A DNA stretch of 64,000 nucleotides from Dehalococcoidia bacterium (lineage in GTDB: Bacteria; Chloroflexota; Dehalococcoidia; Lucifugimonadales; Australimonadaceae). The notes below the pieces were generated by a model. It was not told the origin of the DNA and searched no databases. It saw nothing but the letters and a program-made list of their open reading frames with translations. Location of the stretch: contig DAOUJK010000022.1 in assembly GCA_034422795.1 (NCBI GenBank), positions 70,556 to 134,555 of the forward strand, given 5' to 3'. Below, piece after piece: positions 2,821-20,657 of this stretch. Position 1 is the first letter of the stretch. The number at the start of each line of letters is the position of its first letter. Position numbers and translations under genes: made by a program.

Positions 2821-2849
2821 GATGCAGAATTCATCACCTGCGTGAAGCA

Positions 2850-3044: not shown

Positions 3045-4089
3045 AAACAGGAGAGGCCAAACCCCAGGCCACGGAAGGAAAGAGACATCGCCGGACCTTA
3101 GTCAGGAGCTAACGCCGGCATTTCAAACTGACCTAGGTCGCATGTACCAGGGGGATCTGGGACAGGTCCTTCGGCAGCGTCCTCTGACCGCATATAGGGG
3201 CCAAGTCCAGCTGATACTGACATCGCCTCCGTTCCCGCTCAATAAGAAGAAGAAGTACGGCAACCTGACCGGCGATGCTTACTTGAAATGGCTGACGGGG
3301 TTAGCCCCGCTATTGCGGGCATATCTGAAGCCAGAGGGATCCATAGTCTTGGAGCTCGGCAATGCTTGGAATCCTGGTAGTCCCACCATGTCAACCTTGC
3401 CCCTCAGGGCGCTACTGGGATTCCTGGAAGCCGGCGAACTGAATCTTTGCCAGGAATTCATCTGCTTCAATCCTGCTCGGCTTCCGACGCCGGCGCAATG
3501 GGTCAACATAGAGCGTACCCGCGTCAAGGACTCTTTCACGAGGGTTTGGTGGATGTCTCCAGGGGAACGCCCCAAAGCAGATAACAAGAAAGTTCTGACT
3601 AAGTACAGCAAGAGCATGCAGGACCTGCTGCGTAAAGGGACTTACAACTCTGGGCATCGCCCGTCTGGACACAACATAGGGTCAAAGTCATTCCTTTCAG
3701 ACAACGGTGGCGCAATCCCTCCCAATGTACTAGTCCCTGTAGCAGAGAACGAACCTCTCCCATTATTCGAAGTCCTGCCAATTGCAAACACCCGGGCTAC
3801 AGACGAGTATCAGGAGTACTGTAGCAGCAATGGATTACCAGTTCATCCTGCTAGGATGCAGGAAAAGTTGGCAGAGTTTTTCGTCGAGTTCTTGACAGAC
3901 GAGGGTGACATAGTCCTAGACCCCTTCGCTGGCAGCAACACGACAGGGGCGATTGCTCAGAGGCTCCGGCGCCGATGGGTGTCTGTCGAGCTCAACTCAG
4001 AATACGTTGGAGGAGCTGAGGCCCGGGTGCGACCAGATCTGATCGATGGCACTATGCCTGATCGTCCGTCTGAGCTCTCAATCCACTAA
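3034..4089 (+). CDS. beta-class N4-cytosine/N6-adenine DNA methyltransferase (SPPF type, probably m4C)
   Basis: Catalytic motif IV is LILTSPPFPL near the N-terminus. The AdoMet motif I is VLDPFAGSNTTG near the C-terminus. This IV-before-I order defines the beta class (N6_N4_Mtase family). Confidence 0.85.
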   Translation: MNNRNRRGQTPGHGRKETSPDLSQELTPAFQTDLGRMYQGDLGQVLRQRPLTAYRGQVQLILTSPPFPLNKKKKYGNLTGDAYLKWLTGLAPLLRAYLKPEGSIVLELGNAWNPGSPTMSTLPLRALLGFLEAGELNLCQEFICFNPARLPTPAQWVNIERTRVKDSFTRVWWMSPGERPKADNKKVLTKYSKSMQDLLRKGTYNSGHRPSGHNIGSKSFLSDNGGAIPPNVLVPVAENEPLPLFEVLPIANTRATDEYQEYCSSNGLPVHPARMQEKLAEFFVEFLTDEGDIVLDPFAGSNTTGAIAQRLRRRWVSVELNSEYVGGAEARVRPDLIDGTMPDRPSELSIH

Positions 4090-4120
4090 GTTCGACTTCG
4101 AACCAGAACCGAGGAATGGC

Positions 4121-4942
4121 ATGGCGACTGTCCCAGTTCGAGGGTTGTTGATGGAAGGAGAGTGGACTCCTCCCATTGATGTCCTCCTGGAGCACAGCGC
4201 TTCGCTACCCAGGATCATTGTGGATGCGAAGGACCATTTGTTTCCTGGCAGCTACTTGTGCAGGTTCGATCTACCTCTTGCAAGAGCGAACGACCTTGAA
4301 GAAGCCATTAGGGCTGACCTCGCGCTAGTGGCGAAGAGTTTTGACGCGTGGTATCTGTTGTTTGTGATGCCTGCGCGAACCGTAGACGTGGACTCGCTTG
4401 TTTCCAAATTGGAATCCGCAAGGTTGGTTGATCTTGGCGATAGAGCAGCTCGCCATCTTGCGAAGGGAATTGATGAGTTGGACGAGGGGGAAGCCCGACT
4501 TCTCGTCCGCGAAGTCCCGGGATTGGTCGTAGTTACCGACAATCCTGATCATGAGTGGCACGAGACCTTCACCGCTGCTCATCTAGAGGTGGAAGTCATC
4601 GTCGTCGAACCTTTTCCCATTCAGGACGATGGTTATGCGATTCGACTAGGCGGTCAAACTACTGCAGAAGATGACGTATGCATTATCGCCACTTGTGAGG
4701 AACATCCGACCTTCTCAACATGCTTGTTAGTAAACTGGGTCGATTCCATCGCAAGAGTGCCACCAGGTGACATCTCTCTCTCCTACAGAGGCATAGTGAC
4801 CCATTGGGAATTACGTCCAGGCGATCCTGTCTGGCAATTGCACGCCGTTGGTACCTTCCCTCTACTGGAGTCGCCGCCATACGAAATCGTTGAAGGCACG
4901 GACGGCACTTTTTCAATCAGGAAGCAAGAGAACAAGGCTTGA
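4121..4942 (+). CDS. hypothetical protein (candidate cognate nuclease or specificity partner; no recognisable domain)
   Basis: 273 aa. GAGGAA RBS at 4111-4116, and co-directional 31 nt after the MTase stop. I recognise no motif with confidence. Confidence 0.6.
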   Translation: MATVPVRGLLMEGEWTPPIDVLLEHSASLPRIIVDAKDHLFPGSYLCRFDLPLARANDLEEAIRADLALVAKSFDAWYLLFVMPARTVDVDSLVSKLESARLVDLGDRAARHLAKGIDELDEGEARLLVREVPGLVVVTDNPDHEWHETFTAAHLEVEVIVVEPFPIQDDGYAIRLGGQTTAEDDVCIIATCEEHPTFSTCLLVNWVDSIARVPPGDISLSYRGIVTHWELRPGDPVWQLHAVGTFPLLESPPYEIVEGTDGTFSIRKQENKA

Positions 4943-4958
4943 GGGAGGTGCTGCAGTC

Positions 4959-6455
4959 ATGGAACTGGAAATCGGGACCGAAATCATAAGGTCGTACAAG
5001 CGCCTTTCGTATTCAGCCTGGCATGCCTTGGCGGAATTTGTGGACAACTCTGTCCAGTCCTTCTTGAACAATAGATCGATTCTAGAGGACTCTTACGGAG
5101 AATCTGGAACAGGTTTAACGGTAGATATCCGCTACGAACGCGCCAATGGAGGACGGTTGACGATCAGAGACAATGCGATGGGGATGTCGGAGGTTGAGCT
5201 GTCGAATGCCCTGTACATTGGGAAGAGGCCCGAGATTGACTCGGGACTTTCTGAGTTTGGGATGGGACTCAAGACCGCCGCCTGCTGGTTCGGCGACCAA
5301 TGGGCCGTACGGACCAAGAAGCTAGGAGACACAACTGCTCATACTGTGTACTTCGACGTAGAGCAAGTCGCGAACGGCGACCTAGAACTGCGTCATGAAA
5401 CTTCGTCAGAGCGGCCGGAAGAACACTATACTGAGATAACAATAACTCAACTCAACCAGCGTTATTATGGGAGATCTATCCAACGAATAAAACTGTTCTT
5501 GGGTTCGATGTATCGGACTTACACCGGGAACGGGTTGTTGCGGCTCTTGTACAACGGTGAATCGCTGTCTTGGGTGTCTCCAATCGAAGGAAACAATGTT
5601 CATACTTCGAATGGGAAGCGGTCCTTTGAACACTTTTCTTTTCAGTTGGGCACAAGAGAAGTACGTGGGTGGATAGCTGTCATGGAGCGCGGAAGTCGTG
5701 CGAATGCGGGACTTACCATCATTCGTCGCGGCCGGGTACTTGTCGGCTGGCCCGACTCTTGGAGGCCGCAGTCAATCTTCGGCCAGTTTGAAGGCTCCAA
5801 CGATCTTGTCAACCAGAGGCTTGTCGGCGAGATAAACCTGGATGGTTTCAGTGTGAGTCACACTAAAGATGAGATCCTATTCGAAGATGACGACGAAGAA
5901 ACGCTGGAGCGAGAGCTCTTCCGGATAGCTGAGCCGTATATTGCGATCGCCCAGTCGTATCGAAAACGAGGAGTCCGTAGAGACCCTCCAGGAAGATCTG
6001 TGGTTACCTCAGCGATAGGAATGTTGGAGGATGAACTGCACTCCCAACGACTGCAGTCAGTGTTGGCGGCGAATGGAGACATACCGAGAGCGAGATATGA
6101 GACCTTCGCCTATCCCATGATACGGGCGGTAACAGGAACAGAGCCTCGAGGGACCTACACACTGGAAGGACTGCTCCTGAACATTTTTGTTTCCGATGAG
6201 TTATCAGACAGAGACCCGTATCTGGGGATCGCAATCGAATCTGACGATACCTTGAATGTCGTGATCAACATGAGCCATCCCCATGTTGGAGACTTGCGTG
6301 ACCGCATGGCAGTGCTCAACTATCTGAAGGAGTGCACCTTTGAAGGGATTGCTCAATGGAAAGTCGAAAAGACGTGGCACGCTGATGATCCATCGTTGAT
6401 TAGGGCAATCAAGGACTCCTTGCTGAGAATAGGCCGTTCTCTGAACGACTCATAG
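4959..6455 (+). CDS. GHKL (Bergerat-fold) ATPase, HATPase_c_3 / prokaryotic MORC-like
   Basis: N-box ALAEFVDNSVQSF, G1 box TIRDNAMGMS, G2 box LSEFGMGLKTAACWFG. The C-terminal region (GLTIIRRGRVLVGWP...LVGEINLDGFSVSHTKDEI) looks S5-like. GAGGGAGG RBS at 4941-4948. Confidence 0.8.
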   Translation: MELEIGTEIIRSYKRLSYSAWHALAEFVDNSVQSFLNNRSILEDSYGESGTGLTVDIRYERANGGRLTIRDNAMGMSEVELSNALYIGKRPEIDSGLSEFGMGLKTAACWFGDQWAVRTKKLGDTTAHTVYFDVEQVANGDLELRHETSSERPEEHYTEITITQLNQRYYGRSIQRIKLFLGSMYRTYTGNGLLRLLYNGESLSWVSPIEGNNVHTSNGKRSFEHFSFQLGTREVRGWIAVMERGSRANAGLTIIRRGRVLVGWPDSWRPQSIFGQFEGSNDLVNQRLVGEINLDGFSVSHTKDEILFEDDDEETLERELFRIAEPYIAIAQSYRKRGVRRDPPGRSVVTSAIGMLEDELHSQRLQSVLAANGDIPRARYETFAYPMIRAVTGTEPRGTYTLEGLLLNIFVSDELSDRDPYLGIAIESDDTLNVVINMSHPHVGDLRDRMAVLNYLKECTFEGIAQWKVEKTWHADDPSLIRAIKDSLLRIGRSLNDS

Positions 6456-6461
6456 GATGAG

Positions 6462-7700
6462 ATGATCACTAGGATTATCATAGGGCTTAGGAAATCGTTT
6501 ACGACCGCGTTTCCCAATCCAATTTGGCTTGCCGTGAGCCTCTTGGTTGCAGCGCTACTCGGCGTACTACTGGAGCTGTTTGGATTCCAAGTCATTCCCA
6601 GAGATCGAGACCCGTTCTATTTCTTGTTGGCCACTCTGGCGGCTACTTTGGGTACAGTTCTCGTTCTGGCCTTTACGTTTGCCCTTGTTGCTGCCCAAAT
6701 CGCAGCTCGATACAGCCAATTGCTGTCTGACCGAGTTCTGGGCGGCTGGGCCCTTTGGTATGCAGCACCCTTTGCGGTGGGTATTCTTATGCCTCTATTC
6801 TTACTTCACGGCCGTTTTCATCTATGGTCCGCACAGTGCAGCCTGATCCTGGGCGCATACTGCATAGTGTCACTGTTCCCTTTCGCGGCATCGGTGAGAA
6901 GGCTCCTGTCTGTTTATGAGGCCATTCAAGAGAAGGCTGGCGACCTAGAAAATGAGAAGGCACAAAATGATTGCTATAGAGTTGCTAACGAAATAGGCAA
7001 TATCTGCTTGGGTGCATTGAATCTCAGGGATTTCGAAACATTCGAACGCGGAGTGCGTCGGTTGGTGCAATCATCCCAGACAGATGGATTACATTATTTG
7101 CGACCAACAGTCGCTACAGAGATTAGAAGGATGATTCTGAGGACGGCAGATGATCTATTCGCATCCGAAATCTTGCTTCGTGCAGTGACAGAAATCGCAT
7201 TTGATCATAGATCGGAGTCGGATGCCCTTACTCAGGAACAAGTGCTCGATGAAACTTTGGGCGCATACGAATCGGTGAGTGTATCCGCGCTCCAACAGCA
7301 GAGTGACACCATTGATCTCTTACTCAGGGAGAGTGAACGGGCGATTGAACAATGCAAGACGAAGGAGGCAGCCAAACTCCAGCATCTGCTTTACATTATT
7401 GGTGGTCGCGCAATTTCGGGGCTCCCGATGGACTTGGATTGTGGAGGGCCGGTCCTTGGAGCAATTGGGAATCTGATCCAAACGGAGTATCGCTCCTCGC
7501 TGGAGCCAGCGGAGCGAGATGATCTAATCACTGCTGCTGTTATGCAGATCGAGTCTCTCGGCACAGCAGCAAGGGCAGTTAACAAGAACAATGTGACGGT
7601 TTCCGCAGTGACCGAACTCCAACGAGCGGAAAGGACCTTCGAAGACGAAACCGAAGGAGTGATACGGAGCATTAGGGCATCCTTATCTGAGTTGAGGTGA
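6462..7700 (+). CDS. membrane protein: four N-terminal TM helices plus ~260-aa helical cytoplasmic domain (DUF2254-like architecture)
   Basis: Hydrophobic segments: IWLAVSLLVAALLGVLLELFGF, FYFLLATLAATLGTVLVLAFTFALVAA, WALWYAAPFAVGILMPLFLL, CSLILGAYCIVSLFPFAA. It starts 6 nt after the GHKL ATPase stop. Confidence 0.7.
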   Translation: MITRIIIGLRKSFTTAFPNPIWLAVSLLVAALLGVLLELFGFQVIPRDRDPFYFLLATLAATLGTVLVLAFTFALVAAQIAARYSQLLSDRVLGGWALWYAAPFAVGILMPLFLLHGRFHLWSAQCSLILGAYCIVSLFPFAASVRRLLSVYEAIQEKAGDLENEKAQNDCYRVANEIGNICLGALNLRDFETFERGVRRLVQSSQTDGLHYLRPTVATEIRRMILRTADDLFASEILLRAVTEIAFDHRSESDALTQEQVLDETLGAYESVSVSALQQQSDTIDLLLRESERAIEQCKTKEAAKLQHLLYIIGGRAISGLPMDLDCGGPVLGAIGNLIQTEYRSSLEPAERDDLITAAVMQIESLGTAARAVNKNNVTVSAVTELQRAERTFEDETEGVIRSIRASLSELR

Positions 7701-7779
7701 TCCGGGGAGGTCCACCCCTTGGGTATTGACAGACCCCTAAGCCACATCTCGAAGATGGTTCTACATGTGGGGAGAGACC

Positions 7780-8664
7780 CTATCGCATTGGAGGCTGGGA
7801 TAGCGGTAGTCCTCTAAATGGGTCGTTCTCCCATATATGTTTCACATATTCAAAGAGCCCTTCCACTGGCTTGCGTTCATGGTAGTAGAGGCCACTTAGT
7901 AACTGATCGCCTGCACGGGTGAGTACGATTTTGCCTGCACTGATCTGTTCCCCTCTTCTGAATGGCACAACGAGCTCCCGTCCATGGTAGATGGCATGAA
8001 CACTCCCAATGGGAGGTACAGTCAATAGATAGCCGAACCCCGAATAGTTTATTAGCCCCAGGTCTTCAAGTTGATTGGCGTAGTAGTAGTTCATCCCATG
8101 ATCCGTATAGATTTCGTCTGTGAGGTCAAATACCAGCACGCGATATCCACTTCCACCAATTGCGTCCCAAGCAAAGTCACACAGATTTTGGAACACTTGG
8201 ACATCACTGCTCTCCAGGTTAGCAACCAGATTAACGGTTGCACGGGAGAACGATCCCTGACGGTTGGCTTCGCCAGCGAGAATCCTGGCCCACAGCTGAT
8301 GCATCTGTTCATCTGACACAGTGCTGCACCGCTGAAAGAAGGTGGTGACCCAGTCGTCTTCCATGGTGACGGGGTCGGCATCGTCATTGAGGTGGGGTAG
8401 TGCCAGCGTGACGATGCTTTCGATGTTGCGTTGCTTTGCGACCTCCTCGTGAGCGAGTCGATTGGCAGCTCGTTGCAGCAACCCAGCGACCTCAACATCA
8501 GTATGGGCCTCAGCAACCCTCCGGATATGCTGAGCCTTCGCTTCGGCTTCAGCCATCCGGAGGGTTTGGCTGGGGTCGAAGTGTCGACCGATGGCGTTCG
8601 ACACTTTCTCTATCAGTAGAGTGGCTGGGCGCGACAGGCCAAAGACCTCTAATCCTTCTGCCAC
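7780..8664 (-). CDS. DUF2806-like protein
   Basis: The central segment DDWVTTFFQRCSTVSDEQMHQLWARILAGEANRQGSFSRATVNLVANLESSDVQVFQNLC matches my recollection of the DUF2806 signature. It is convergent with the upstream operon. Confidence 0.5.
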   Translation of the reverse strand: MAEGLEVFGLSRPATLLIEKVSNAIGRHFDPSQTLRMAEAEAKAQHIRRVAEAHTDVEVAGLLQRAANRLAHEEVAKQRNIESIVTLALPHLNDDADPVTMEDDWVTTFFQRCSTVSDEQMHQLWARILAGEANRQGSFSRATVNLVANLESSDVQVFQNLCDFAWDAIGGSGYRVLVFDLTDEIYTDHGMNYYYANQLEDLGLINYSGFGYLLTVPPIGSVHAIYHGRELVVPFRRGEQISAGKIVLTRAGDQLLSGLYYHERKPVEGLFEYVKHIWENDPFRGLPLSQPPMR

Positions 8665-8687
8665 CTGTGGTGCCTCCTAGCACACGG

Positions 8688-8987
8688 TTATTCCGCGTTC
8701 TTGCGCGGTCTGCCGCGCCTGCGTCCATCCGACGACCAGAAGTAGACCGTGGTCCCAGTGCGCCGGAACTCCAGTTTCGTTCCGAGCGCCGTCGCAGCTG
8801 CGTTCAGCCTGCGCCGAATCGCCTGCGTCGTCTCGCCCTCTCCCGCCTCCAGCTTCCCCGCCTCTCCCGCGGTCACCCGCTGGATGTAGCCGACGTACTC
8901 TTGCAGCAGCGCCGCGCGCTTGCCGGTTGCGCTCCGCGCGCGGGCCTCGCCGATCGGTAGTGTGCCGAACGTGGGCATCCTGTCCAC
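8688..8987 (-). CDS. small basic protein with C-terminal AT-hook-like motif
   Basis: 99 aa. Third-codon positions are strongly G/C-biased when read by eye. The C-terminus GRRRGRPRKNAE contains the RGRP AT-hook core. Confidence 0.55.
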   Translation of the reverse strand: MDRMPTFGTLPIGEARARSATGKRAALLQEYVGYIQRVTAGEAGKLEAGEGETTQAIRRRLNAAATALGTKLEFRRTGTTVYFWSSDGRRRGRPRKNAE

Positions 8988-9349
8988 CTCCTGGTGCGTG
9001 CAGCCGCGTGCCGCAGCCGCCTCTGTGGCTGGAGACTATAGCACCCTGAGCCCGCCCACCACCCACGGCGCCGTCGAGCGTGTACCGCTCCCACTTCCGC
9101 CCGCGCCCCCACGTCGTGCACCTTGTCAGCTCCGTGGTCGCCGCCAGGGTGATGTGCTCCCACCGCGTTGTCCCGGCCAGCACGTGGTCCCGCCCACACT
9201 CCCGACATGGGCCCGCCGAAGGCGCTGGACAGCGTGCTCCCTCACGACTCAAGCCATGCCCAGCGCCTCCCCCGAACACCCCAGGCCACCGCGACACGTC
9301 ACCGTCCTCGCCGCCTGAGAGAAGTTCGCCCTCACCCTCCATCCACCGG

Positions 9350-9442
9350 CTGCAAGCTTGTCGTTCTCACTCGTGGGGCTTGTCCGATCACCCCGTCTCC
9401 GGGCCCTGCAAACTTGTAGTTGCCACTCGGGGGGCTTGTTCC
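9350..9442. repeat. two imperfect ~36-nt direct repeats (CTGCAAGCTTGTCGTTCTCACTCGTGGGGCTTGTCC / CTGCAAACTTGTAGTTGCCACTCGGGGGGCTTGTTCC)
   Basis: Read directly at 9350-9385 and 9406-9442, in the non-coding region upstream of the replication-relaxation gene. Confidence 0.8.
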
Positions 9443-9747: not shown

Positions 9748-11397
9748 ATGAATCCGATAGACCGGGAGATACACGCGCTGCGCAGCCTGGCGTCGATGCC
9801 GTTCCTCGACGGTCAGGAGCTGGCCGCCGTCTCGGGCACGCCCCGACGCACCATGCACGATGCGGTGAGTGCCCTGAGGCGCAGGGGGCTCGTCGATGCG
9901 GTGCCGCACGCCATCGACCTGCTGGCCCCCACCCACCGCCTGTACGTGACGCGCAGGGGGCTGGAGCGGCTCTCCGAGTGCGAGGGGGAGAGTGTGCAGC
10001 AAGTCCTCGACCGCTACCCCGTCTCCGCGCACTGGCGGCGCATCCTGCTGGGGCGCCTCGATGCGGTTGCCGTCATCTACCGGCTCGCGCGCAGGATCGC
10101 GGAGGCCGAAGGCCCCTTGCTCCTGTGCTGGCACCGGAGCGCGCCGGTGGACGCGTCGATCACCCTGGACGACGGGCGCGTCGTCGGCATCGTGCGGCAG
10201 GGAGCGACGTCGGACAGGACGGGCTTCTCGAAGCGGGTGTGGCGGCTCCTCGACGGTTCCCAGCCCGGCGCCGTGCTCGTGCTCGCGCCGGACGAGGTGC
10301 GCCTCCGGCATGGCGCCGGGCTGTTCAGGCGCGCGTCGATGCACGTGTTCCTGGCCCTGGAGCGCGATGCCGTCCTCTCCTCACGCGGCGAGCGGATATG
10401 GCGCCTGCCCTCCCTCGACAACGCGGTCGACCTCTGCACGGCCCTCTCGGGCGCTCGGCTCCGCGGGTCCCCGGTGGAGGAGCGGCGGCTGTCGAGGCCG
10501 CTCGTGCCCGCCGATATCCGGATACCCGACGCGCTCCTGACCGTCCCCGACTATCTTCTCCCGGTGGTGCTGAAGCCGGCATTGAAGCGGACGCTGGACG
10601 TGCTGGGCGACTGGCCGTGGCTCATGTCGAAGGATCTGGGCGGGCTGCTGGGGATCTCGAAGGGGCGCACGTCGCAGCTGACGGTCCCGCTGGTGAGCGC
10701 CAGGCTCGTCAGCAGGGTGGAGATGGGAGGGCGGGAGCGGCTGGCGCTGACGGACTGGGGGCTGGCGGTCCTGGCTCGCCGCGACCGCACGTCTGTCGGC
10801 GGGCTGCGGCGGCAGTGGAGCGTCGAGTCGGCCGGGGGAAGGGGTCCGCTCACGTGGCGCAGGGTATCGGGGAGGCGGAGCAGGCTGCTGGCGCGGAACA
10901 TGGCCCACACCGACGCGGTGCACGGATTCCTGGCGCAACTGGCGACGCAGGCGAGGGCCAAAGGGCATCGGGTGGTGCAGATCGACCCGGCGCACCGGGC
11001 GTCGCGGCACTTCCGGCACCGGGGTGAGATGCGGGCGGTGCATCCCGACGCGTTCGGCATGCTGCGGGTGGGCCGCGCGAGGAAGCCCTTCTTCCTGGAG
11101 TGGGAGCACCGGGCGGTGCGTCCCGGCACGATGGCGGCGCGCCTCGCGCCGTATCTCCGCTACTACGCGACGCGCGAGCCCGTCGACGACCACGGGGCGG
11201 AGCCGGTCGTGCTCATGGTCTTCGACGATGCGGCGGTCGAGGCGCGGTTCCTGGTGGTCGCGCGGCGGGAGATGGCGCGCAACCGCGTCCGTCTACCGCT
11301 GTTCGTGTCCCACCGGGGGAGGCTTGAGGCCGTGGGGCCGATGGGGGCGGCGTGGCGCAGGCCCGGCGTGCTGGAGCCGGGGTACGCCTTCGAGTGA
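9748..11397 (+). CDS. replication-relaxation family protein (two wHTH-containing halves)
   Basis: The C-terminal half has a Replic_Relax-like signature: NMAHTDAVHGFLAQL...HPDAFGML...PFFLEWEHR...LAPYLRYY. Two wHTH-like segments are present (LDGQELAAVSGTPRRTMHDAVSALRRRGLV and LMSKDLGGLLGISKGRTSQLTVPLVSARLV). Confidence 0.65.
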   Translation: MNPIDREIHALRSLASMPFLDGQELAAVSGTPRRTMHDAVSALRRRGLVDAVPHAIDLLAPTHRLYVTRRGLERLSECEGESVQQVLDRYPVSAHWRRILLGRLDAVAVIYRLARRIAEAEGPLLLCWHRSAPVDASITLDDGRVVGIVRQGATSDRTGFSKRVWRLLDGSQPGAVLVLAPDEVRLRHGAGLFRRASMHVFLALERDAVLSSRGERIWRLPSLDNAVDLCTALSGARLRGSPVEERRLSRPLVPADIRIPDALLTVPDYLLPVVLKPALKRTLDVLGDWPWLMSKDLGGLLGISKGRTSQLTVPLVSARLVSRVEMGGRERLALTDWGLAVLARRDRTSVGGLRRQWSVESAGGRGPLTWRRVSGRRSRLLARNMAHTDAVHGFLAQLATQARAKGHRVVQIDPAHRASRHFRHRGEMRAVHPDAFGMLRVGRARKPFFLEWEHRAVRPGTMAARLAPYLRYYATREPVDDHGAEPVVLMVFDDAAVEARFLVVARREMARNRVRLPLFVSHRGRLEAVGPMGAAWRRPGVLEPGYAFE

Positions 11398-12583: not shown

Positions 12584-15500
12584 CTACCGCACCACCCGCC
12601 ACACGTACTCCACGTCCCGTATGTCCTCCGCAAGGAACCGCTGGCACAGCGCCAGCTCATCGCCCTCCGGCGTCCGACCGGACGACGTCTGTGCCGCGGC
12701 GATGGCGGCCTCCATCTCGTCCCAGCAGTTGTCCCCGAAGCGCGACTCGAAGCGCCGCCACCCCACGGTGTCGTACACCGCCACGAGCACGAGCCGCCCC
12801 CCAGCAACAACCGGGCGGGAGGTTACGAGGAAGCCGGAGCCGGCGCCGCTGGCGTTCACCGCGCGCAGCCGCACCGAGCCGATAGTCACGCCCGCTATGG
12901 TGTAGGACGTGGTGCCGGGGCCGCTGTTCGGGATGGGGATCCACGTGCTCCCATCGAGCGAATACTCATACCGCACGATGCTGCTGTCGCCTGGGTTGCT
13001 CCACCTCAGCGTGATGCCGCCCTGCCCCGCCGTCACGGTCAGCCCCATGGGGGTCGCAGGGGGCGGCTGCCCGGGGGTGGCGCTGGTCGCCGCAGACGGG
13101 CCCGCGTTGCTGGTGCCGCGCACGGCCCGCAGTTCGATCCTGTAGGTGGTGCCGTTGGTCAGGCCGGTCACGGTGTACGAGGTGGTGGTCGCGCCGCTGC
13201 CGCTGATGTCGGTCCAGTCGGGGCTCCAGCTGCTGCCGCCGTCCGCGCTCACCCGGTACTGGTACTTGCTGATCGCCGAGTTGCCGGGGTTGTTCCAGCG
13301 CAGCGAGGCCTGGGTGTCGCCAGCCGTGGCCCTCAAGCCGGTCGGGGTCGCCGGGGGCGGCACTCCGGCGACGGCGGTGACGCTGGCGGCCGGGCCCGCG
13401 TTGCTGGTGCCGCGCACCGCCCGCAGCTCGATCCTGTAGGTGGTGCCGTTGGTCAGGCCGGTCACGGTATACGAGGTCGTTCCCGCGCCGCTGCCGCTGA
13501 CGTCGGTCCAGTTGGGGCTCCAGTTGGTCCCGCCGTCCGCGCTCACCCGGTACTGGTACTTGGTGATCAAGGAGTCGCCAGGGTTGGTCCAGGTCAGCCT
13601 GACCTGAGTGTCGCCGGCCTGGGCCGACAGGCCGCTCGGGGCCGCCGGGGGCTGCTGTCTGGGAGTGGCGCTGACGTTGGCGCTCGCCGTGCCCGGCGTG
13701 TTGCCCTGATCGATCACCGCGCGCACCTGGAACGTGTAGGCCGTGCCGTTGGTCAGGCTGCCCACGGTGTGCGAGGTCGTGCCTGCGCCGCTGCCGGGGA
13801 TGTCGGTCCAGGCCGGCCAGTTGGTCCCGCCGTCCGTGCTCTGGCGGTACTGGTACTTGCTGATCGCCGTGTTGCCGGGGTTGGTCCAGGTCAGCGTGAC
13901 CTGGCCGTCGCCGGCTGCGGCCTGCAGGCCGGTCGGCGCGGGCGGGCCGGTCTTGGTGTAGCCGTAGATGCCGATCTTCTGCGGATTGTGGGCGGTGCTC
14001 CACGCCGTGACGGCTCGTGCCCTCGTCAGCCCGGCGTCGTGGATGGTGAAGCCTGACGCCGCGCCGGAATCCTCCCCGTTGTCGTCGGTGCGACGGAGAT
14101 CGAACGTCCCGCTACCGCCGCTGGCTGAGTCGAACACGACCCAGTACGTAGTGCCTTCGGTCAGGTCGATGCCGGCGCCGCTGGCCGTGAACGTGTTGCC
14201 CCCGCCGGACAGCGCGGCCGGCTCGGTCAAGTCCGTGCAGGTCGTGCCCGGCACGTGGGAGGAGCCGCTGGAATCGTTGTTACAGACCTTGACACTGTAG
14301 CCGCTCGGCCCGGGAGGGGTTCCCGAGCCACCCGCGCCGAGAATGACGTAGCTCAGCTTGAAGCCCGCATCGTGAGACCCGGTGGTGAAGGCCTGCGCGG
14401 CGTCATTGGTGACGATGTTCGTACCGGCAGCAGTGCCGATGTTCTTGTTGAGGTTCTTGACCAGTTGCCCCGCGGGCGTGGCGCTGACGCTGGCGGCAGC
14501 GCCATTGTCGGTCCCGGCAACGGCCCGCAGCTCGAACGTGTACTTCGTCCCGTTGGTCAGGCTGCTCACGGTGTGGGTGGTGGTGGTCGCGCCGCTGCTC
14601 GGGACGTCGGTCCAGGCCGACCAGGTGCTCCCGCCGTCAGTGCTCTGGCGGATCTGGTACCCGGTGATCGTCGAGTCCGAGGGGTCGGTCCAGTTGAGCA
14701 CGACCTGGCCGTCGCCGCCCTGCGCCGTCAGGCCCTGCGGGGCCGCCGGTCCCGCCGCTGTCTCGGTGCCATACAGGGCGAACCGCGACACGCTGCCGCT
14801 AGGACTTCCGAAGGCGGCCGTGCTGTTGTGGGCCCTGCGCGATGAGCCGTTGGTGATGCTCCAGCCTGTCAGTCCGTCGCTGTCCTCGTGGTAGTTCCCG
14901 GCCCTGCCGAGTCTGAAGGTGCTGGCAGCCTCGCCTTGGTCCCAGACCAGGGCGTAGGTGGTGCTTGCGCTGAGGCTCTCGGGGGTCGTCAGGGTGAAGG
15001 CGTTCAGCCCGGCGGCAAGGGCGGACGGTTTGTTGAAGGTCGCCAGCTTGGCGGCTCCCGACCCGGTCGACCACAGCTCCAGCTCGTACGTGGTCGGCGG
15101 AGTGCCGAGGGTGTCGACTGTGATTACTGCCCGGGTCAGGCTGAAGGATTGGGACCCGGTGGTGAATTGCGTGTGAATGTCCCTGCTGACGTTATCTCCG
15201 AAACTGGCGCTGGCAACGACGTTGCCGACCAGTTTGCGGGCCGAAGAGGCCTTCGGCCCGCCCCGGATGGCCATCATGAGACTCGAACCCAGTGTCTGCC
15301 AAGTCGTGAGGCCTACTCCTCTGACCAGTCTGCCGTTTGCGATGCTCCAGCCGCTGGAAGCGCCGCGGTCCTCGTCGTCTGAACTGGTGGTGCTCAGCTG
15401 CGTTGAGAGATTTACGCTCTGAGTCGAATCGACGTACAGGATGTAGGTGCCTGCGTCCAGGTCGATGCCGCCTGAAGGAGCGGTGAAGGTGTTGCGCCCG

Positions 15501-17050
15501 ACGACCAACTCCGAGGGGTTGGTCAGGGTGCCGTGATTCGTTGACCCCGGGGTGTTGTTGGTTCCGACCGAACGGATCGATACGCTGAAGTTGGATGCCG
15601 TCGAGCCGGATTCGCCGGTCAGCGCCAGTTCCACCGCGGTCAGATTGACCCCGCCCGCGCCGACGGTGAAGGGCTGCGAATGGTCGTGGTCGAATTCATC
15701 TGAACTGAAGCTCGCTGGCGGGACGACAGTGGCCCGCAGGTTGCTGACCAGGGGGGAGATGTTCGTGGCGGTCGTGCTGCTGACGGCCGGCACGTCGTTC
15801 TCCCAGGCGTCCTTCAGCTTGTTGCTGGTGGGCTGCCCGTACTCGGTGGTGACCGTCTGGTCCAGCCTGGGAATGTGGTTAGACACTATCTCGTACCTGA
15901 CCTGCTTGCCGCTGATGACCACCGAGTTCCCTACTGCGGCCACTCGTATGCCGCCGCCGACCCTGTACCCGAACGCTCCATGGGCCGTGCCGGAGTCCTC
16001 CTTCAGGCTGCGGTCGAAGGTCAGGGTCATCCGGTTCCCGTCCACCACGGCGGACGTGAGCGACGGGTCCACGTCGGTCAGGTTGGTGACCGCCTGGTCG
16101 GTGTAGGTGGCCACCTCGTTGCCATCCACGTCCTTCAGCTTGTTGCCGCTGCCGGGCTTGGTGTACCGGGCGGTCACGGTCTGCCCGGAGGTGACGGTGG
16201 GCACAGTCAGGACCGCCCGCTTGCCGCTGACGCTGATGGCGGTGGCGTTCTGGTATGAACCGCTGCCTATCTTGATACCGAACTGGCTGGCCGCGGGCGC
16301 GGCGCTGGAGTCCAGGTAACGGTCGAAGGTGGCGACCAGCTTCGTCCCGTCGATCTCAAGGCTCTCCACCGTCGGGGCGCCGGATTCCTTGGCGCGGCCC
16401 AGCACCTGCATCTTCAACGAGTCATTGAACTGGGTCCAGGTTGTTTCAAGATGAGTGCTTGCCAGCACGCCGTTGGCGATGCTCCAGCCGATCTCCTGGA
16501 AGTCCTCATTGTCGGAATTGGTGCTGCTCACGACGGTAGAGCCGACGCCGGCTGCCGTGGTGGTCAGCACCACGTAGTAGGTGGTCCCCTTGGTCAGCTC
16601 GATTCCGCCTCCGCTGGCGGTGAACGTATGGAATACTGCTTCGGCCGTAGACGCCAGCGTGCCGGACAGGGTCAAGTCGTGGCCGCTTGGGCAGTTGGAG
16701 ACGGGGTTGGAGTCGCTGCCCGTGCAGACCTTCACGTTGAAGGTCGACGCGGTCGTTCCTATGGCGGAGAACCTAATCTTGACGGAGGTCAGCACGTAGC
16801 CGTGCTGGTGGGTACCGGCCGTGAAGGCCTGAGCCATGTCGAAAGTGGCGGCGCCGATGTCTCTTCCAGCACCACCGGTCTGATTGTCGTTGTCGACGAG
16901 GACCTCCTCCGGCGGGGCCGACGAGCTGGATTGCCCCATGACCGGAGCCGGTGCAGAGGAGGAGACGACGAGGGTGGCGAAGAGCACAAGGAGCAGCACC
17001 GCCAGACGGCGCACCGGGAGGGAGGGCCCGTATGACCGGGGGCTGCTCAT
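12584..17050 (-). CDS. very large secreted surface protein with Ig-like and fibronectin type III repeats
   Basis: N-terminal signal or anchor segment RRLAVLLLVLFATLVVSSSAPAP. There are about five FN3 units (e.g. LTWTNPGDSLITKYQYRVSADGGTNWSPNWTDVSGSGAGTTSYTVTGLTNGTTYRIELRAV) and two SbsA/Big-like units. Four copies of an unrecognised ~150-aa module are also present. Confidence 0.85.
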   Translation of the reverse strand: MSSPRSYGPSLPVRRLAVLLLVLFATLVVSSSAPAPVMGQSSSSAPPEEVLVDNDNQTGGAGRDIGAATFDMAQAFTAGTHQHGYVLTSVKIRFSAIGTTASTFNVKVCTGSDSNPVSNCPSGHDLTLSGTLASTAEAVFHTFTASGGGIELTKGTTYYVVLTTTAAGVGSTVVSSTNSDNEDFQEIGWSIANGVLASTHLETTWTQFNDSLKMQVLGRAKESGAPTVESLEIDGTKLVATFDRYLDSSAAPAASQFGIKIGSGSYQNATAISVSGKRAVLTVPTVTSGQTVTARYTKPGSGNKLKDVDGNEVATYTDQAVTNLTDVDPSLTSAVVDGNRMTLTFDRSLKEDSGTAHGAFGYRVGGGIRVAAVGNSVVISGKQVRYEIVSNHIPRLDQTVTTEYGQPTSNKLKDAWENDVPAVSSTTATNISPLVSNLRATVVPPASFSSDEFDHDHSQPFTVGAGGVNLTAVELALTGESGSTASNFSVSIRSVGTNNTPGSTNHGTLTNPSELVVGRNTFTAPSGGIDLDAGTYILYVDSTQSVNLSTQLSTTSSDDEDRGASSGWSIANGRLVRGVGLTTWQTLGSSLMMAIRGGPKASSARKLVGNVVASASFGDNVSRDIHTQFTTGSQSFSLTRAVITVDTLGTPPTTYELELWSTGSGAAKLATFNKPSALAAGLNAFTLTTPESLSASTTYALVWDQGEAASTFRLGRAGNYHEDSDGLTGWSITNGSSRRAHNSTAAFGSPSGSVSRFALYGTETAAGPAAPQGLTAQGGDGQVVLNWTDPSDSTITGYQIRQSTDGGSTWSAWTDVPSSGATTTTHTVSSLTNGTKYTFELRAVAGTDNGAAASVSATPAGQLVKNLNKNIGTAAGTNIVTNDAAQAFTTGSHDAGFKLSYVILGAGGSGTPPGPSGYSVKVCNNDSSGSSHVPGTTCTDLTEPAALSGGGNTFTASGAGIDLTEGTTYWVVFDSASGGSGTFDLRRTDDNGEDSGAASGFTIHDAGLTRARAVTAWSTAHNPQKIGIYGYTKTGPPAPTGLQAAAGDGQVTLTWTNPGNTAISKYQYRQSTDGGTNWPAWTDIPGSGAGTTSHTVGSLTNGTAYTFQVRAVIDQGNTPGTASANVSATPRQQPPAAPSGLSAQAGDTQVRLTWTNPGDSLITKYQYRVSADGGTNWSPNWTDVSGSGAGTTSYTVTGLTNGTTYRIELRAVRGTSNAGPAASVTAVAGVPPPATPTGLRATAGDTQASLRWNNPGNSAISKYQYRVSADGGSSWSPDWTDISGSGATTTSYTVTGLTNGTTYRIELRAVRGTSNAGPSAATSATPGQPPPATPMGLTVTAGQGGITLRWSNPGDSSIVRYEYSLDGSTWIPIPNSGPGTTSYTIAGVTIGSVRLRAVNASGAGSGFLVTSRPVVAGGRLVLVAVYDTVGWRRFESRFGDNCWDEMEAAIAAAQTSSGRTPEGDELALCQRFLAEDIRDVEYVWRVVR
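13098..13685. repeat. two near-identical 294-nt tandem copies (FN3-coding units)
   Basis: GGGCCCGCGTTGCTGGTGCCGCGCAC...CCTGTAGGTGGTGCCGTTGGTCAGGCCGGTCACGGT recurs at 13098 and 13392, a period of 294 nt (98 codons). Confidence 0.8.
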
Positions 17051-17211
17051 CGCGTCAGCCCCCGTGGCGGGATGTGAAGGCTACGCGGGGAGCGAAAGCC
17101 GTAAGCCGCCCGCTTGGAGCCCCAGTACACGGGATCATCTGGTTCCGGGCTAGTGTGACATCGGGACGCGCGGCGGGTCACTCCCGGAAGGGGCGTGTAC
17201 GACGTTGTACC

Positions 17212-17249
17212 CCTATGGAGTGTATAAGTGCATTTATGCACGCTTTGGC
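17212..17249. repeat. lox-like recombination site, left (15-8-15; outer arm degenerate)
   Basis: CCTATGGAGTGTATA-AGTGCATT-TATGCACGCTTTGGC. The spacer is the reverse complement of the right-site spacer. Confidence 0.6.
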
Positions 17250-17312
17250 CTTCCGGCTGTGGACGTGCGTAAGACTTCGACCGTAGAGGAGATAGCCAAT
17301 GCCCCCAATGAC

Positions 17313-18335
17313 ATGCCCGTGCGGGATGGCACGGCCATACCCGGTAACGCCGCCTCTATCGCACTTGGAGCCCCCCCGCAGCGGACCGAAGGCCTGACGG
17401 AATCAGACGCCGGCAACCTGAACGCCGTTCTCGGCCATGAGATGGCCCCTAACACAGCGATGAACTACCGCCTGCAGTGGCGGAGCTTCGTCGCGTGGGC
17501 ATTGAAGAAGGGCGTGCAGGCCCTGCCTGCCGACCCGGGTCAGGTTGCCGCCTACCTGGCGAACCGCCTTGAGGAGCACGGCCACAAGCCCGCGACCCTG
17601 CAGATGGCCGCTGCCGCCATCGCGTACATCCACAGGACCACTGGACTCGTCAATCCCTGCGCCTGGCCGGAGGTCAAGAGGACGCTCAGAAGCGCCATCC
17701 GCAAAGCGGGAAAGGCTCAGAAGCAAGCCCAGGCGCTCACCGCGGAGGCGCTGGCAGCCATCCGGTCAACCGCGCGCGAACCCCGACCTGGGCGAGGTGG
17801 AAGACTGGAGAGTCCCCGCGTCGCCAGGCGCAGGGGAGACCTTGACGTTGCGTTGGTTTCGCTCATGCGCGACGCGATGCTGAGGGTGTCCGAGGCCGCG
17901 GCCCTCCAGTGGAGGGACATCGAGACCGAGTCGGATGGGACGGGACGTCTCCTGATCAGACGCTCCAAGACAGACGTCGACGGAGATGGTGCAGTCGCCT
18001 TCCTGTCCACTCAGACCATGGAGGCGCTGAGCCGGATACGAAACGGCGCACCCGGCTCCGAGAGCGTGTTCGGACTCCGGCCCAACCAGATGGCGCAGCG
18101 CATCAAGAAGGCGGCTCTGGCCGCAGGCCTGGGGGACGGCTTCAGCGGCCACTCTCCCCGAGTGGGTATGGCGCGCGACCTCGCGAGGGCGGGGATCGAG
18201 CTGCCGAGTCTCATGATCGCAGGGCGGTGGCGCACGCCTGGAATGCCGGCCCACTACATCCGCAACGAAACGGCTGGCAAGGGCGCAGTAGCGCAGTTCT
18301 ATCGCCTCAGCGCCCCCGCCTTCAGCGCTACCTGA
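17313..18335 (+). CDS. Cre-like tyrosine site-specific recombinase
   Basis: SGHSPRVGMARDLARAGIELPSLMIAGRWRTPGMPAHYIRNE parallels Cre SGHSARVGAARDMARAGVSIPEIMQAGGWTNVNIVMNYIRN (the His, Arg and Tyr catalytic positions). MLRVSEAAALQWRDI...LLIRRSKTD parallels Cre LLRIAEIARIRVKDI...IHIGRTKT. Start codon uncertain: ATG at 17313 or an upstream GTG. Confidence 0.85.
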   Translation: MPVRDGTAIPGNAASIALGAPPQRTEGLTESDAGNLNAVLGHEMAPNTAMNYRLQWRSFVAWALKKGVQALPADPGQVAAYLANRLEEHGHKPATLQMAAAAIAYIHRTTGLVNPCAWPEVKRTLRSAIRKAGKAQKQAQALTAEALAAIRSTAREPRPGRGGRLESPRVARRRGDLDVALVSLMRDAMLRVSEAAALQWRDIETESDGTGRLLIRRSKTDVDGDGAVAFLSTQTMEALSRIRNGAPGSESVFGLRPNQMAQRIKKAALAAGLGDGFSGHSPRVGMARDLARAGIELPSLMIAGRWRTPGMPAHYIRNETAGKGAVAQFYRLSAPAFSAT

Positions 18336-18358
18336 GGGCAACGTGCGAGGAAAATGTA

Positions 18359-18387
18359 TTGACGTTCGGCTATGGCGAACCTAGGCT
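18359..18387 (+). promoter_or_regulatory. candidate outward-facing promoter inside the cassette
   Basis: TTGACG (18359-18364), a 17-nt spacer, then TAGGCT (18382-18387). It lies downstream of the recombinase stop and points across the right lox-like site. Confidence 0.35.
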
Positions 18388-18408
18388 TACAGGCGTTTTG
18401 GTCGAGGA

Positions 18409-18446
18409 GTAAAAGCGTGCATAAATGCACTTATACACGCTTTTAC
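18409..18446. repeat. lox-like recombination site, right (15-8-15)
   Basis: GTAAAAGCGTGCATA-AATGCACT-TATACACGCTTTTAC. The two arms are reverse complements at 14 of 15 positions around an asymmetric 8-bp spacer. Confidence 0.7.
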
Positions 18447-18827
18447 CTTGTACGCCGGGAGTCCGGGCGGCGGACGGATCACCTGGGATCCCGACCCCTG
18501 TGAGCCCCTCTCCTGGTCGACCTGGCACCCCCACTCCGCCTCCCCCTTCCCGCTGGCTGCCTCTCGAGTCCTCCATCCTCTCAGCCCCTCCATATCGTTA
18601 AACGACCGGGACGTGCAGACGGATGCGAAGACTTGGGTTCCCCATGCCTCGATTCTTCTCCGCTGATCGCGGGTCCAAGGGAGAACAGGTTCCTCCTCTC
18701 CCCTACGCATCCCGTCATGTGGCAGCGTTCCGCCGGGCATCTGACACCAGGCCCTTGACCTGCGCAAAGAACTAGTCAGACCATCGCCCTATAGCAACCG
18801 CAGAAGACACGAAGGAGCACTCCCGAC

Positions 18828-20657
18828 ATGACCGAACGACAGAACCCCACCACTGCAGCCCTCTACGCGCGGGTCTCCAGCGATAGGCAGGACGTCGACC
18901 TCTCCGTCGCCGCCCAACTCAGAGCCCTCAGGGACTACGCGCAGAAGAACAACGTCGCCGTCGTCCGCGAGTACATCGACGAGGCAGAGAGCGGGCGCGT
19001 CGCTGACCGGCCTCAGTTCCGCCGCATGATCGACGAGGGCAGCAAGACCAGCTCACCCTTCGAGGTCATCCTCGTCTGGAAGTTCTCACGCTTCACTCGC
19101 AAGCGCGAGCACGCCGTGGCATTCAAGTCCATGCTCCGCAAGAAGGGCATCAGGGTCGTCTCCATCACCGAGCACGCAGACGACACCCCCACCGGCAAGC
19201 TCATGGAGGCCATCATCGAGTCCGTCGACGAGTTCTACTCGGAGAACCTCGCCCAGGAGGTCATCCGGGGGATGCGCGAGGCGGCCTCGCGCGGCTTCTG
19301 GGTTGCACCCCAAGCTCCCTACGGCTACAGGAAGGTCCACGTGCAGGACGGCGCCAAGAAGCGCCCTGTGCTGGAGCTCGACCCGCCCGCCGACGCCGTG
19401 GTCAGGCGCATCTTCAGCATGGCGCTCAGCAGCACGAGCGTCCTCGACATCACCAAGACCCTCAACGCCGAAGGCGTCCCCTCCCCGGACGGCAAGCGGT
19501 GGATGAAGACCACCGTCCACCGCATGCTCGGCAATGAGGCATACGCGGGAACCCTCGTCTGGGGAACCACCGCGAAGGACAACACGCCTCCCGTCCGCGT
19601 CGAGAAGGCGTTCCCCGCCATCGTCTCCCAGCGGGAGTTCAAGCGGGTGGAGAAGATGCTGCGCTCCAAGGCCCCGAAGGTCACGAATCCCCGCCGCGTT
19701 GCCAGTCCTTACCTCCTCAGCGGCCTCCTCACCTGCCAGACGTGCGGCAAGGCCCTCACTGCGGCAGAGGCCAAGGGCGGCAGGTACACCTACTACGTCT
19801 GCCACTCCCTCCTCAAGCGCGGGAGCGGCGAGTGCACAACCCCGCGCCTCAACGCCAAGCGCTTCGAGCGGCTCATCATCGACCAGATCAGGGAGCACAT
19901 CCTCACCGAGTCCAACGTCCGCGACCTCGTGAAGATGGCCAACGAGGAGATGGACTCCGTCATCAGGGAGCAGCAGGAGCGTGTCGAGGCAGCCGACGCC
20001 GAGCTCGCCGACATCCGCAGGCGCATGGACCGCCTCTGGGAGCTGGTCGAGAAGACCGACCTCACCATGGAGGAGATCCTCCCGCGCATCCGGCATCACC
20101 TGGAGAACCAGGAGCGGCTGGAGCGGGCGGCCGACGAGGCGCGAGCCCTGATGGCCCTGCGCAGGGCCAATGTCCAGGACGTGGAGCGGGTCGCGGCCTA
20201 CGCCAGGGAGATGAGCGATTTCCTGATGGAGAGCGACCTCACCGAGACAAAGGCCTTCATCCGGTCGTTCGTCAAGGAGATCGCGGTCCGGCCCGGCAGG
20301 GCAACGATCCACTACACGATCCCCACCCCGTTGGACAACGACATCGGCGGTGCGGACGTCGCGGAGATCGCCCTCAGCCGCCGAGTTATGAGTTCGGTAA
20401 CGTCTGGTGGGGAAGGGGAGACTCGAACTCCCACGCCACTTGGGCACATGATCCTAAATCATGCGCGTCTGCCATTCCGCCACTTCCCCCGGACGTATCG
20501 TACCGCAGTCAGCCGGCTACTATCGCGGACGCCTGCGGCGGCGCGGCGGACGCCGCCGCGCGGGCGGCGGAGGCGGCTCTTCCTCCGGGGGCGCCTCCAC
20601 AAACCTGACCTCATCGCTCTCCCTCTGCTGCGCTCCGGGCACGGGCGCATTCAGTGA
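18828..20657 (+). CDS. large serine recombinase (resolvase + recombinase + zinc-ribbon + coiled coil)
   Basis: N-terminus TAALYARVSSDRQDVDLSVAAQLRALRDYA...DRPQFRRMI carries the catalytic Ser. Zinc ribbon: CQTCGKALT...YYVCHS...GECT. GAAGGAG RBS upstream. The last ~85 codons are antisense to tRNA-Leu and its flank and probably are not native to the protein. Confidence 0.85.
   Translation: MTERQNPTTAALYARVSSDRQDVDLSVAAQLRALRDYAQKNNVAVVREYIDEAESGRVADRPQFRRMIDEGSKTSSPFEVILVWKFSRFTRKREHAVAFKSMLRKKGIRVVSITEHADDTPTGKLMEAIIESVDEFYSENLAQEVIRGMREAASRGFWVAPQAPYGYRKVHVQDGAKKRPVLELDPPADAVVRRIFSMALSSTSVLDITKTLNAEGVPSPDGKRWMKTTVHRMLGNEAYAGTLVWGTTAKDNTPPVRVEKAFPAIVSQREFKRVEKMLRSKAPKVTNPRRVASPYLLSGLLTCQTCGKALTAAEAKGGRYTYYVCHSLLKRGSGECTTPRLNAKRFERLIIDQIREHILTESNVRDLVKMANEEMDSVIREQQERVEAADAELADIRRRMDRLWELVEKTDLTMEEILPRIRHHLENQERLERAADEARALMALRRANVQDVERVAAYAREMSDFLMESDLTETKAFIRSFVKEIAVRPGRATIHYTIPTPLDNDIGGADVAEIALSRRVMSSVTSGGEGETRTPTPLGHMILNHARLPFRHFPRTYRTAVSRLLSRTPAAARRTPPRGRRRRLFLRGRLHKPDLIALPLLRSGHGRIQ
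20405..20489 (-). tRNA. tRNA-Leu (anticodon TAG), class II, CCA encoded
   Basis: Manual fold of GGGGAAG-TG-GCGGAATGGCAGACGC-G-CATGA-TTTAGGA-TCATG-TGCCCAAGTGGCGT-GGGAG-TTCGAGT-CTCCC-CTTCCCC-A-CCA. It has a 7-bp acceptor stem, a 5-bp anticodon stem, a long variable arm and a TTCGAGT T-loop. Confidence 0.9.

Follow-up and report, generated by a model that had tools for sequence, protein, structure and literature searches.

We analysed a short segment in a 64,000-nt stretch of DNA from a Dehalococcoidia bacterium (Chloroflexota; contig DAOUJK010000022.1 of assembly GCA_034422795.1), and this whole stretch is called the window below, its first letter being position 1. In the segment, a gene for a Cre-type tyrosine recombinase is enclosed by two inverted lox-like sites, and a promoter-like element, a Shine-Dalgarno (SD) sequence and a start codon are directed outward through the right-hand site. 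Beyond the left-hand site, on the minus strand, lie a short leader open reading frame (ORF) and the gene for a giant secreted FN3 protein. The enclosed segment is called the cassette, and related loci and proteins are designated by L and P numbers, respectively.

A repeat search of the window revealed a perfect inverted repeat of 27 nt (17220-17246 and 18412-18438, 100% complementary); when up to 3 mismatches were allowed, this 27-mer occurred in only two copies in the 64 kb and in none of 100 dinucleotide-preserving shuffles. Each arm of the repeat sits within a 38-bp lox-like site, to which no strand is assigned. The left site (17212-17249) reads CCTATGGAGTGTATA-AGTGCATT-TATGCACGCTTTGGC; its inner arm is good, whereas the outer one is degenerate beyond GTGTATA, the 7 nt beside the spacer matching and 9 of the 15 positions matching overall. 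The right site (18409-18446) reads GTAAAAGCGTGCATA-AATGCACT-TATACACGCTTTTAC and is a near-palindrome whose arms agree at 14 of 15 positions. The target geometry of Cre-type enzymes is present beside the gene in the form of two 15-bp arms and an 8-bp spacer on the right, and of one full arm and a 7-nt arm on the left. The spacers, AGTGCATT on the left and AATGCACT on the right, are reverse complements of each other, and the two sites are therefore inverted. Because the outermost spacer bases (A...T) pair, the asymmetric core is 6 bp long (GTGCAT), and the asymmetry of the window spacer resides in two positions only. A GTATA-N8-TATAC core is common to the window sites and to loxP. TTGTAC stands just outside both sites (17205-17210 and 18448-18453). 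No third or solitary lox-like site was found in the 64-kb window with the 27-mer and two 20-mers at up to 3 mismatches and with a relaxed core scan, and an Rfam scan of 16500-19200 gave as its sole match a meaningless microRNA on the palindrome. A preliminary description of this DNA, made by a model from the letters without database searches, had already given these site positions, the exact 27-bp repeat, the 14/15 arms on the right, the degenerate outer arm on the left and both TTGTAC copies, all of which we find at the same places; of the asymmetric 8-bp spacer of loxP type that it described, the geometry and the inverted spacers stand and the asymmetry is refined to the 6-bp core.

The recombinase gene (17259-18335 on the plus strand, starting from GTG 17259 or ATG 17313, with the stop codon ending at 18335) is the sole long ORF between the sites, and it matches the Pfam family Phage_integrase (PF00589, 3.6e-12). 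All 17 matches to PDB sequences, the best at 8e-18, are to Cre or engineered versions of it, and residues 276-328 correspond to 285-337 of Cre (GHSPRVGMARDLARAGIELP versus GHSARVGAARDMARAGVSIP). In an alignment of 16 sequences, namely the window protein and 15 homologs, R191, K219, H280, R283, W306 and Y315 are invariant, and we take their Cre equivalents to be R173, K201, H289, R292, W315 and Y324. When an AlphaFold2 model was compared with PDB by Foldseek, ranks 1-33 were all Cre or the engineered variant Tre (E ~3e-12, TM ~0.52), followed by XerA at 2e-5; the mean pLDDT of this model is only 65, and it was used solely for fold ranking and with limited weight. Identity to Cre is ~22-24% in structural alignments. 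By these comparisons the enzyme is of the Cre type, and its predicted fold resembles Cre more closely than it does the Xer, lambda Int or IntI groups. The preliminary description had called the only enclosed gene Cre-like and had seen a catalytic C-terminus paralleling that of Cre; the top rank of Cre by sequence and fold agrees with the former, and a HMMER alignment to Cre that spans GHSPRVG...RW...HY bears out the latter. We also noticed a strong SD sequence, GAGGAG, 7 nt ahead of ATG 17299, which opens a 32-codon ORF (17290-17397 region) in a frame other than that of the recombinase; this may be an upstream ORF limiting recombinase translation.

More than 1,400 homologs were found at E <= 0.001, the best 120 of which are ~70% identical and come from metagenomes and metagenome-assembled genomes (MAGs). 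The matches in named genomes are all to Dehalococcoidia or Tepidiformaceae (Chloroflexota) MAGs, and several chromosomes carry two or three copies of the cassette each. An inverted site pair of the same design brackets the gene in nearly all loci at >=60% identity, with a family consensus of about CTAAAGCGTGTATA-AANNCAGT-TATACACGCTTT and arms that vary in some subclades. No bracketing repeats were found at homologs of <=50% identity (L044-L058), and the architecture is thus confined to the clade of >=60% identity. The family is essentially absent from the IMG/VR viral contigs, in which one distant relative at 35% identity was found, and a phage origin is unsupported by this lone match.

Inverted target sites give inversion, not excision, and both orientations of the cassette occur naturally. 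At the orthologous loci L004 and L007, which belong to two genomes, the cassettes are collinear with 92.5% identity, and each left flank corresponds to the right flank of the other locus in reverse complement, with 89-90% identity. L005 and L018 are two copies 170 kb apart on the chromosome OZ244718.1; their flanks share one direction, and the cassettes between these flanks point opposite ways. When the sites were aligned, the outer arms, one good and one degenerate, proved to belong to the flanks and the inner arms to move along with the cassette, which places the exchange point inside the spacer, as is expected of a Cre-type reaction. The spacers are identical and inverted at both sites in 24 of 26 distinct site pairs, and 10 spacer variants occur across the lineages. 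The relatives that are ~92% identical to the window in DNA have AATGTGAT at both sites, and the window has AGTGCATT at both; such a matched change is what heteroduplex formed during recombination would produce. That this is a site-specific invertible cassette is highly probable, and the self-encoded invertible cassette envisaged in the preliminary description is supported for the family by the opposite orientations in the two pairs of loci, with the crossover in the spacer. The natural inversions and the co-changing spacers are only indirect evidence that the enzyme recombines these sites, which it may do without accessory factors. As a separate observation, the right spacer of L063 (11378-11399, on a low-coverage contig) is flipped, with two substitutions and with AATATAGT on the same strand as in the left site, and the two sites of this locus are therefore in direct orientation. 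Spacers of low asymmetry, including that of the window, might allow occasional excision.

The cassette carries signals that leave it on one side. Downstream of the recombinase stop codon is a promoter-like element facing outward (18359-18387 on the plus strand; called P_out below), which consists of TTGACG (18359-18364), 17 nt and TAGGCT (18382-18387), agrees with the consensus at 8 of 12 positions and lies 58 nt from GTG 18417. In most lineages the corresponding element is TTGACT-16-GATAAT with an upstream TG, stands 81-89 nt from the right site and is stronger than that of the window. In a uniform scan of 21 distinct cassettes, 18 had an outward promoter-like element at the right end and none had one at the left end, and scans of the window likewise gave nothing convincing for a leftward promoter at the cassette 5' end; in 3.7 kb of L020 (5300-9000), the outward element is the sole promoter match. 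Translation signals follow (18404-18419 on the plus strand): GAGGAG (18404-18409), a 7-nt gap and GTG (18417-18419), the last of which is part of the right-site inner arm and is directed outward. An SD-like motif occurs 4-13 nt 5' of the arm GTG at the right end in all 19 distinct cassettes for which this was compared and at the left end in 5 of them. Since GTG is within the inner arm, the promoter, SD sequence and start codon move with the cassette, and the frame crosses the spacer and the outer arm and enters the flank that happens to be next to them. In the present orientation it forms a short ORF (18417-18503 on the plus strand) of 28 codons; the ORF on the side of the good arm has 11-13 codons in most lineages, 28 in the window lineage and more in a few.

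On the other side, the frame from GTG of the left-site inner arm is a leader ORF of 64 codons (17047-17241 on the minus strand), and a flipped cassette would supply this same left-arm GTG together with P_out and the SD sequence. The leader ends in a 4-nt overlap, ATGA (17050-17047), in which its TGA (17049-17047) is interlocked with the ATG (17050-17048) of the giant gene (12584-17050 on the minus strand). The latter encodes a secreted protein of 1,488 amino acids with fn3 domains (Pfam, 1.1e-46) and an N-terminal segment resembling a signal peptide, and it is presumed to be the regulated gene. This arrangement recurs. L032 has the same leader/start overlap as the window, and L001 and L030 have a 57-codon leader with a GTGA overlap; two indels, +1 and -22, compensate each other and keep the leader in frame between these two pairs, whose peptides differ in the stretch between the indels. 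A 4-nt overlap is present in L031 too. A 178-codon leader stands ahead of a 3,061-aa gene with a 4-nt overlap in L002/L067, a 172-codon leader with ATGA precedes a giant gene with a signal peptide in L004, and a 114-codon leader with a 4-nt stop/start overlap is present in L069, L073 and L074. In L008 and L037, the frame from the arm GTG is open for >845 codons, up to the locus end, and continues into a flanking ORF. We roughly estimate at ~1% or less per lineage the probability that a first stop coincides exactly with the start codon by chance; this estimate combines the frame match, the length of the open frame at ~65% G+C and the presence of A next to the start codon.

In most lineages the flanking genes encode large secreted Ig-, fn3- or cadherin-like proteins, and giant genes of this kind are found on this same side of the cassette in L020-L029, L061-L067 and L030-L032. 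In L004, one of the two loci of opposite orientation, P_out, the SD sequence and GTG face the leader and the giant gene, and judging from this layout L004 looks like a natural ON state; the window is presumably in the OFF orientation. We also observed that the first ~130 nt outside the site with the degenerate arm are conserved among L004, L007, L069 and L002 and encode about YTPxSLRNxYGSxPAPxRRA...TLTAxHS. This conservation of the leader, be it of a peptide or of an RNA, across several lineages indicates that the target flank is a part of the system and not random DNA. When the FN3 gene itself is compared with L001, L030 and L032, its N-terminal half is unalignable in DNA although the cassettes are 92% identical, and its repeat-rich C-terminal part retains 78-83% DNA identity. 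By these alignments, the FN3 surface protein appears to be fast-evolving or being exchanged.

We regard it as probable that the segment is a self-contained invertible promoter cassette driven by its Cre-type tyrosine recombinase. The recombinase would bind the two inverted lox-like sites (arms of ~13-15 bp, an 8-bp spacer and a 6-bp asymmetric core), strand exchange within the spacer would flip the 1.2-kb segment that encodes the enzyme, and transcription and translation would exit the cassette through the right recombination site. In the present orientation, the recombinase, P_out, the SD sequence and GTG all face right and the product would be the 28-codon ORF; P_out may also transcribe a large serine recombinase gene at 18828, and no terminator-like site was found on that strand between P_out and 18828. 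After inversion, the signals would face left and the 64-codon leader would be translated, and the FN3 gene would be switched on by transcription and by translational coupling to the leader. On balance, we favour the view that the cassette serves as an ON/OFF switch for the flanking surface-protein gene. The activity of P_out, an inversion frequency at the level of phase variation and the control of the FN3 gene are what we infer from the sequence.

Several observations weigh against this regulatory interpretation or against its application to the window. P_out of the window falls under the threshold of the scan tool, which did not call it, and was read by eye; its distance from the site is also shorter than that in the main family. 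The left-end GTG of the window lineage is preceded by an SD-like motif as well, GGAAGG, which makes the translational asymmetry weaker in this lineage. No convincing promoter for the recombinase was found by the window scans, and its start codon is uncertain: GTG 17259 is the start as called in the 95%-identical P0001, and neither this GTG nor ATG 17313, the in-frame candidates, has an SD sequence. Some of the leader ORFs could be non-coding, as long open frames are common in DNA of 65-70% G+C. Nearly all assembled loci are presumed to be OFF, which is odd for a gene of 1,500-3,000 codons unless it has its own promoter too. Finally, the window lineage (the window, L001 and L030-L032) shows one orientation only; because the four close relatives share the orientation of the window, inversion is documented for the family rather than for this exact lineage. 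Among contigs with the identical recombinase P0022, the 10 listed of 19 all have the same orientation.

To the right of the cassette in the window is the large serine recombinase gene (18828-20657 on the plus strand; Resolvase, Recombinase and Zn_ribbon_recom domains), which is at present co-directional with P_out and is conserved in L030 and L001. Its 3' end is overlapped by a gene for tRNA-Leu with anticodon TAG (20405-20489 on the minus strand), and this overlap suggests an integrated element that has its integrase end here and would include the cassette and FN3 gene to the left. A second tRNA-Leu segment, which would mark the other island end, was not found in the window, and ordinary metabolic genes lie beyond the serine recombinase and tRNA-Leu. 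At the far left, positions 1-9400 have 50-60% G+C against ~66% and contain genes for an N6/N4 DNA methylase, a HATPase_c_3 protein, a DUF2806/Abi_alpha protein and a nucleotidyltransferase (1933-2778); this block looks like a defence or mobile island. Nucleotidyltransferase-like DNA is also present in the cargo of relatives (L001 5653-6498, L008 and L010), and a Replic_Relax/MarR protein is encoded at 9748-11397 of the window.

In many lineages, a paralog of the recombinase (~269 amino acids, ~44% identity to the recombinase) lies beside the good-arm site and always reads toward the cassette; examples are L004 1420-2223, L007 4510-5322, L009 4485-5318, L020 7827-8636 and L061 11806-12615. In this paralog GHSxR is replaced by GDSPR (GDSPRLG, His to Asp), and the protein is truncated before the Trp and the Tyr nucleophile; we thus predict that it has no catalytic activity, and it might act in regulation or as a directionality factor. 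The paralog is absent from the window. Past the paralog, beginning just beyond its promoter region, the cargo of the relatives is highly variable and mostly defence-related, even beside identical recombinases (right flanks of L020-L029, L061-L066 and L069-L074), and includes type I restriction-modification, MmeI, Z1+HATPase_c_3, CD-NTase-like/CBASS-like, DruA, GmrSD, RES/HEPN and SNF2 genes. These right flanks are a hypervariable defence hotspot. A broader proposal, which we offer tentatively and consider rather unlikely, is that soil Dehalococcoidia possess a hitherto undescribed, hypervariable surface-and-defence locus controlled by the cassette, in which one set of promoter, SD sequence and start codon serves either flank. 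The giant surface protein could then be a phage receptor, the island side would hold the paralog with swappable defence cargo or, in the window, the serine integrase, and the inactive Cre paralog could set directionality. Rare excision and re-integration via the low-asymmetry spacers might explain the spread of the module.

The alternative that survives best, while still improbable, is that the cassette inverts with no output to its neighbours, the inversion serving self-regulation through an external promoter or being a selfish or neutral property. Only ~10-60 nt separate the left site from the possible starts of the recombinase, and no internal promoter for it was found. In orientation B, as in L004, the gene upstream of the recombinase and co-directional with it is that of the inactive paralog, so that recombinase transcription may, and on this explanation should, depend on orientation. 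Inversion without output, however, fails to explain why an outward promoter and SD sequence are conserved in so one-sided a manner 3' of the recombinase; it also fails to explain the 4-nt overlaps or continuations of the open frame that recur in independent lineages, as well as the constant association with surface-protein genes. On account of this one-sidedness of the promoter and SD sequence, the recurrent overlaps and the surface-gene association, we favour a regulatory output, with which self-regulation is compatible as an added layer.

Less probable still is that the recombinase is mainly an integrase or cargo-capture enzyme of a genomic island, serving the defence hotspot in an integron-like or island-like manner, and that inversion of its own gene is a by-product of an extra internal site. 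The identical recombinases P0022, P0047 and P0062 do adjoin different defence cargo, the left site with its degenerate outer and good inner arm resembles a hybrid attL, and the module of cassette and paralog is conserved from exactly the left site. But no third lox-like site was found in the 6-10 kb of cargo at any of the relatives' loci, each of which has two sites, nor in the window, and an integron-like cassette platform was rejected on this ground. Moreover, the breakpoint of the cargo is just past the start codon of the paralog, and no lox-like site is apparent in the alignment there; cargo is lacking on that side of the window cassette, where only the serine recombinase and tRNA-Leu are found; and the near absence of the family from viral contigs also speaks against such an enzyme.

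It is very doubtful that the cassette of this window is a frozen relic, with a recombinase that is unexpressed or inactive and with sites and gene kept merely by descent. Such a relic would agree with the single orientation among the four close relatives, with the ambiguous start codon and the strong SD sequence and ATG 17299 opening a different frame, and with an N-terminal region shorter than in family members of ~415 amino acids. Against it, the catalytic residues are intact, the ORF is open and 95% identical to relatives, and the two sites are identical at 27 of 27 positions in the core; furthermore, both spacers have changed together since the split from the ~92% DNA-identical relatives, which would be difficult to explain if the sites were no longer engaged in recombination or gene conversion with each other. 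The least credible explanation is a compact mobile element similar to an insertion sequence, in which the tyrosine recombinase would be the transposase, the sites terminal inverted repeats, TTGTAC a duplicated target or crossover core and the two orientations independent insertions: TTGTAC just outside both window sites, the two or three copies in several genomes and the start of L020/L061 homology exactly at the left site could suggest it, but the TTGTAC pair, which had led the preliminary description to raise a mobile cassette, is peculiar to the window (TTGCCC/TTGTCC in L030, TGGCCC/TTGCAA in L032 and TTGCCC/TTGTAC in L001, all ~92% DNA-identical relatives), the copies within genomes (L006/L016, L002/L018 and L005/L018) share flanks beyond the sites on at least one side and are segmental duplications, each outer arm, good or degenerate, remains attached to its flank in loci of differing orientation, no further copy or solitary site is present in the window, and excision is impossible for a Cre-type enzyme when its sites are inverted, as is established for Cre/loxP. 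The absence of the TTGTAC pair from relatives and the shared flanks led us to reject this transposon alternative. The left-end homology boundary between L002 and L018, which coincides with a site, fits recombination between copies.

The invertible promoter cassette may be compared with systems already known. Cre serves P1 in circularisation and dimer resolution. Cre/loxP of P1, together with Dre/rox, Vika/vox, VCre and the YR series, represents the same enzyme type with the R-K-H-R-W-Y active site and the same simple site geometry of 13-15-bp inverted arms and an 8-bp asymmetric spacer. In described systems of the Cre type the target adjoins the gene (PMC10250229), as it does here. Mechanistically, the reaction is that of Cre/lox used for inversion. 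In contrast to Cre/loxP, which is carried on a phage or plasmid, the present system is chromosomal in Dehalococcoidia, its inverted sites bracket the gene and so invert it, one outer arm is degenerate, and an outward promoter, SD sequence and start codon are added. In architecture the closest is Hin/hix of Salmonella. In this system, as in Gin, Cin and Pin, an invertase gene lies inside the segment together with an outward promoter, which drives a flanking gene for a surface structure in one orientation only. Hin is, however, a serine recombinase that needs an enhancer and Fis, whereas here a Cre-type tyrosine recombinase acts with lox-like sites, the start codon lies inside the recombination site, and the output would go through a coupled leader ORF.

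In function, the cassette resembles the FimB/FimE-fimS and RecV switches. In FimB/FimE-fimS, the RecV/Cdi switches of C. difficile, IpuA/IpuB-ipuS and the capsule promoters of Bacteroides, a tyrosine recombinase inverts a promoter element that is bounded by short inverted repeats and adjoins an operon for a surface protein or adhesin, resulting in ON/OFF phase variation (PMC6083910, PMC5386303, PMC2784873). Their recombinase genes lie outside a switch of 200-400 bp and are Fim/Xer-like, whereas the present switch is 1.2 kb long, is mostly the recombinase gene and is of the Cre type; many of its relatives add the conserved catalytically inactive paralog beside the switch. In Flp/FRT of the yeast 2-micron plasmid, a recombinase gene between two inverted targets flips its own segment. 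That system differs in being on a eukaryotic plasmid, with 599-bp repeats, a function in copy-number amplification and no outward promoter logic, and Flp is not closely related. In full-text literature searches, neither a Cre-type recombinase enclosed by inverted sites of its own nor invertible switches in Dehalococcoidia were found to have been described, and no such switch was found for the phylum Chloroflexota. The published pipeline that identifies native sites of Cre-type enzymes searches the vicinity of the gene for single palindromes (PMC10250229).

Genome-engineering searches seek natural recombinases with their native sites (PMC10250229), and the family is a ready panel of natural Cre-type recombinases with native sites, comprising at least 10 spacer variants and several arm variants. 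In nature, a Cre-like reaction could be regulated by the inactive paralog that many of its members have conserved. A role of the cassette as a switch for the giant surface protein is plausible from the arrangement of the locus, and it would add a new architecture of phase variation, in which a Cre-type enzyme resides inside its own switch and the output passes through the recombination site. Being a large family found beside giant surface proteins and defence hotspots, these cassettes may matter for phage-host dynamics in soil.

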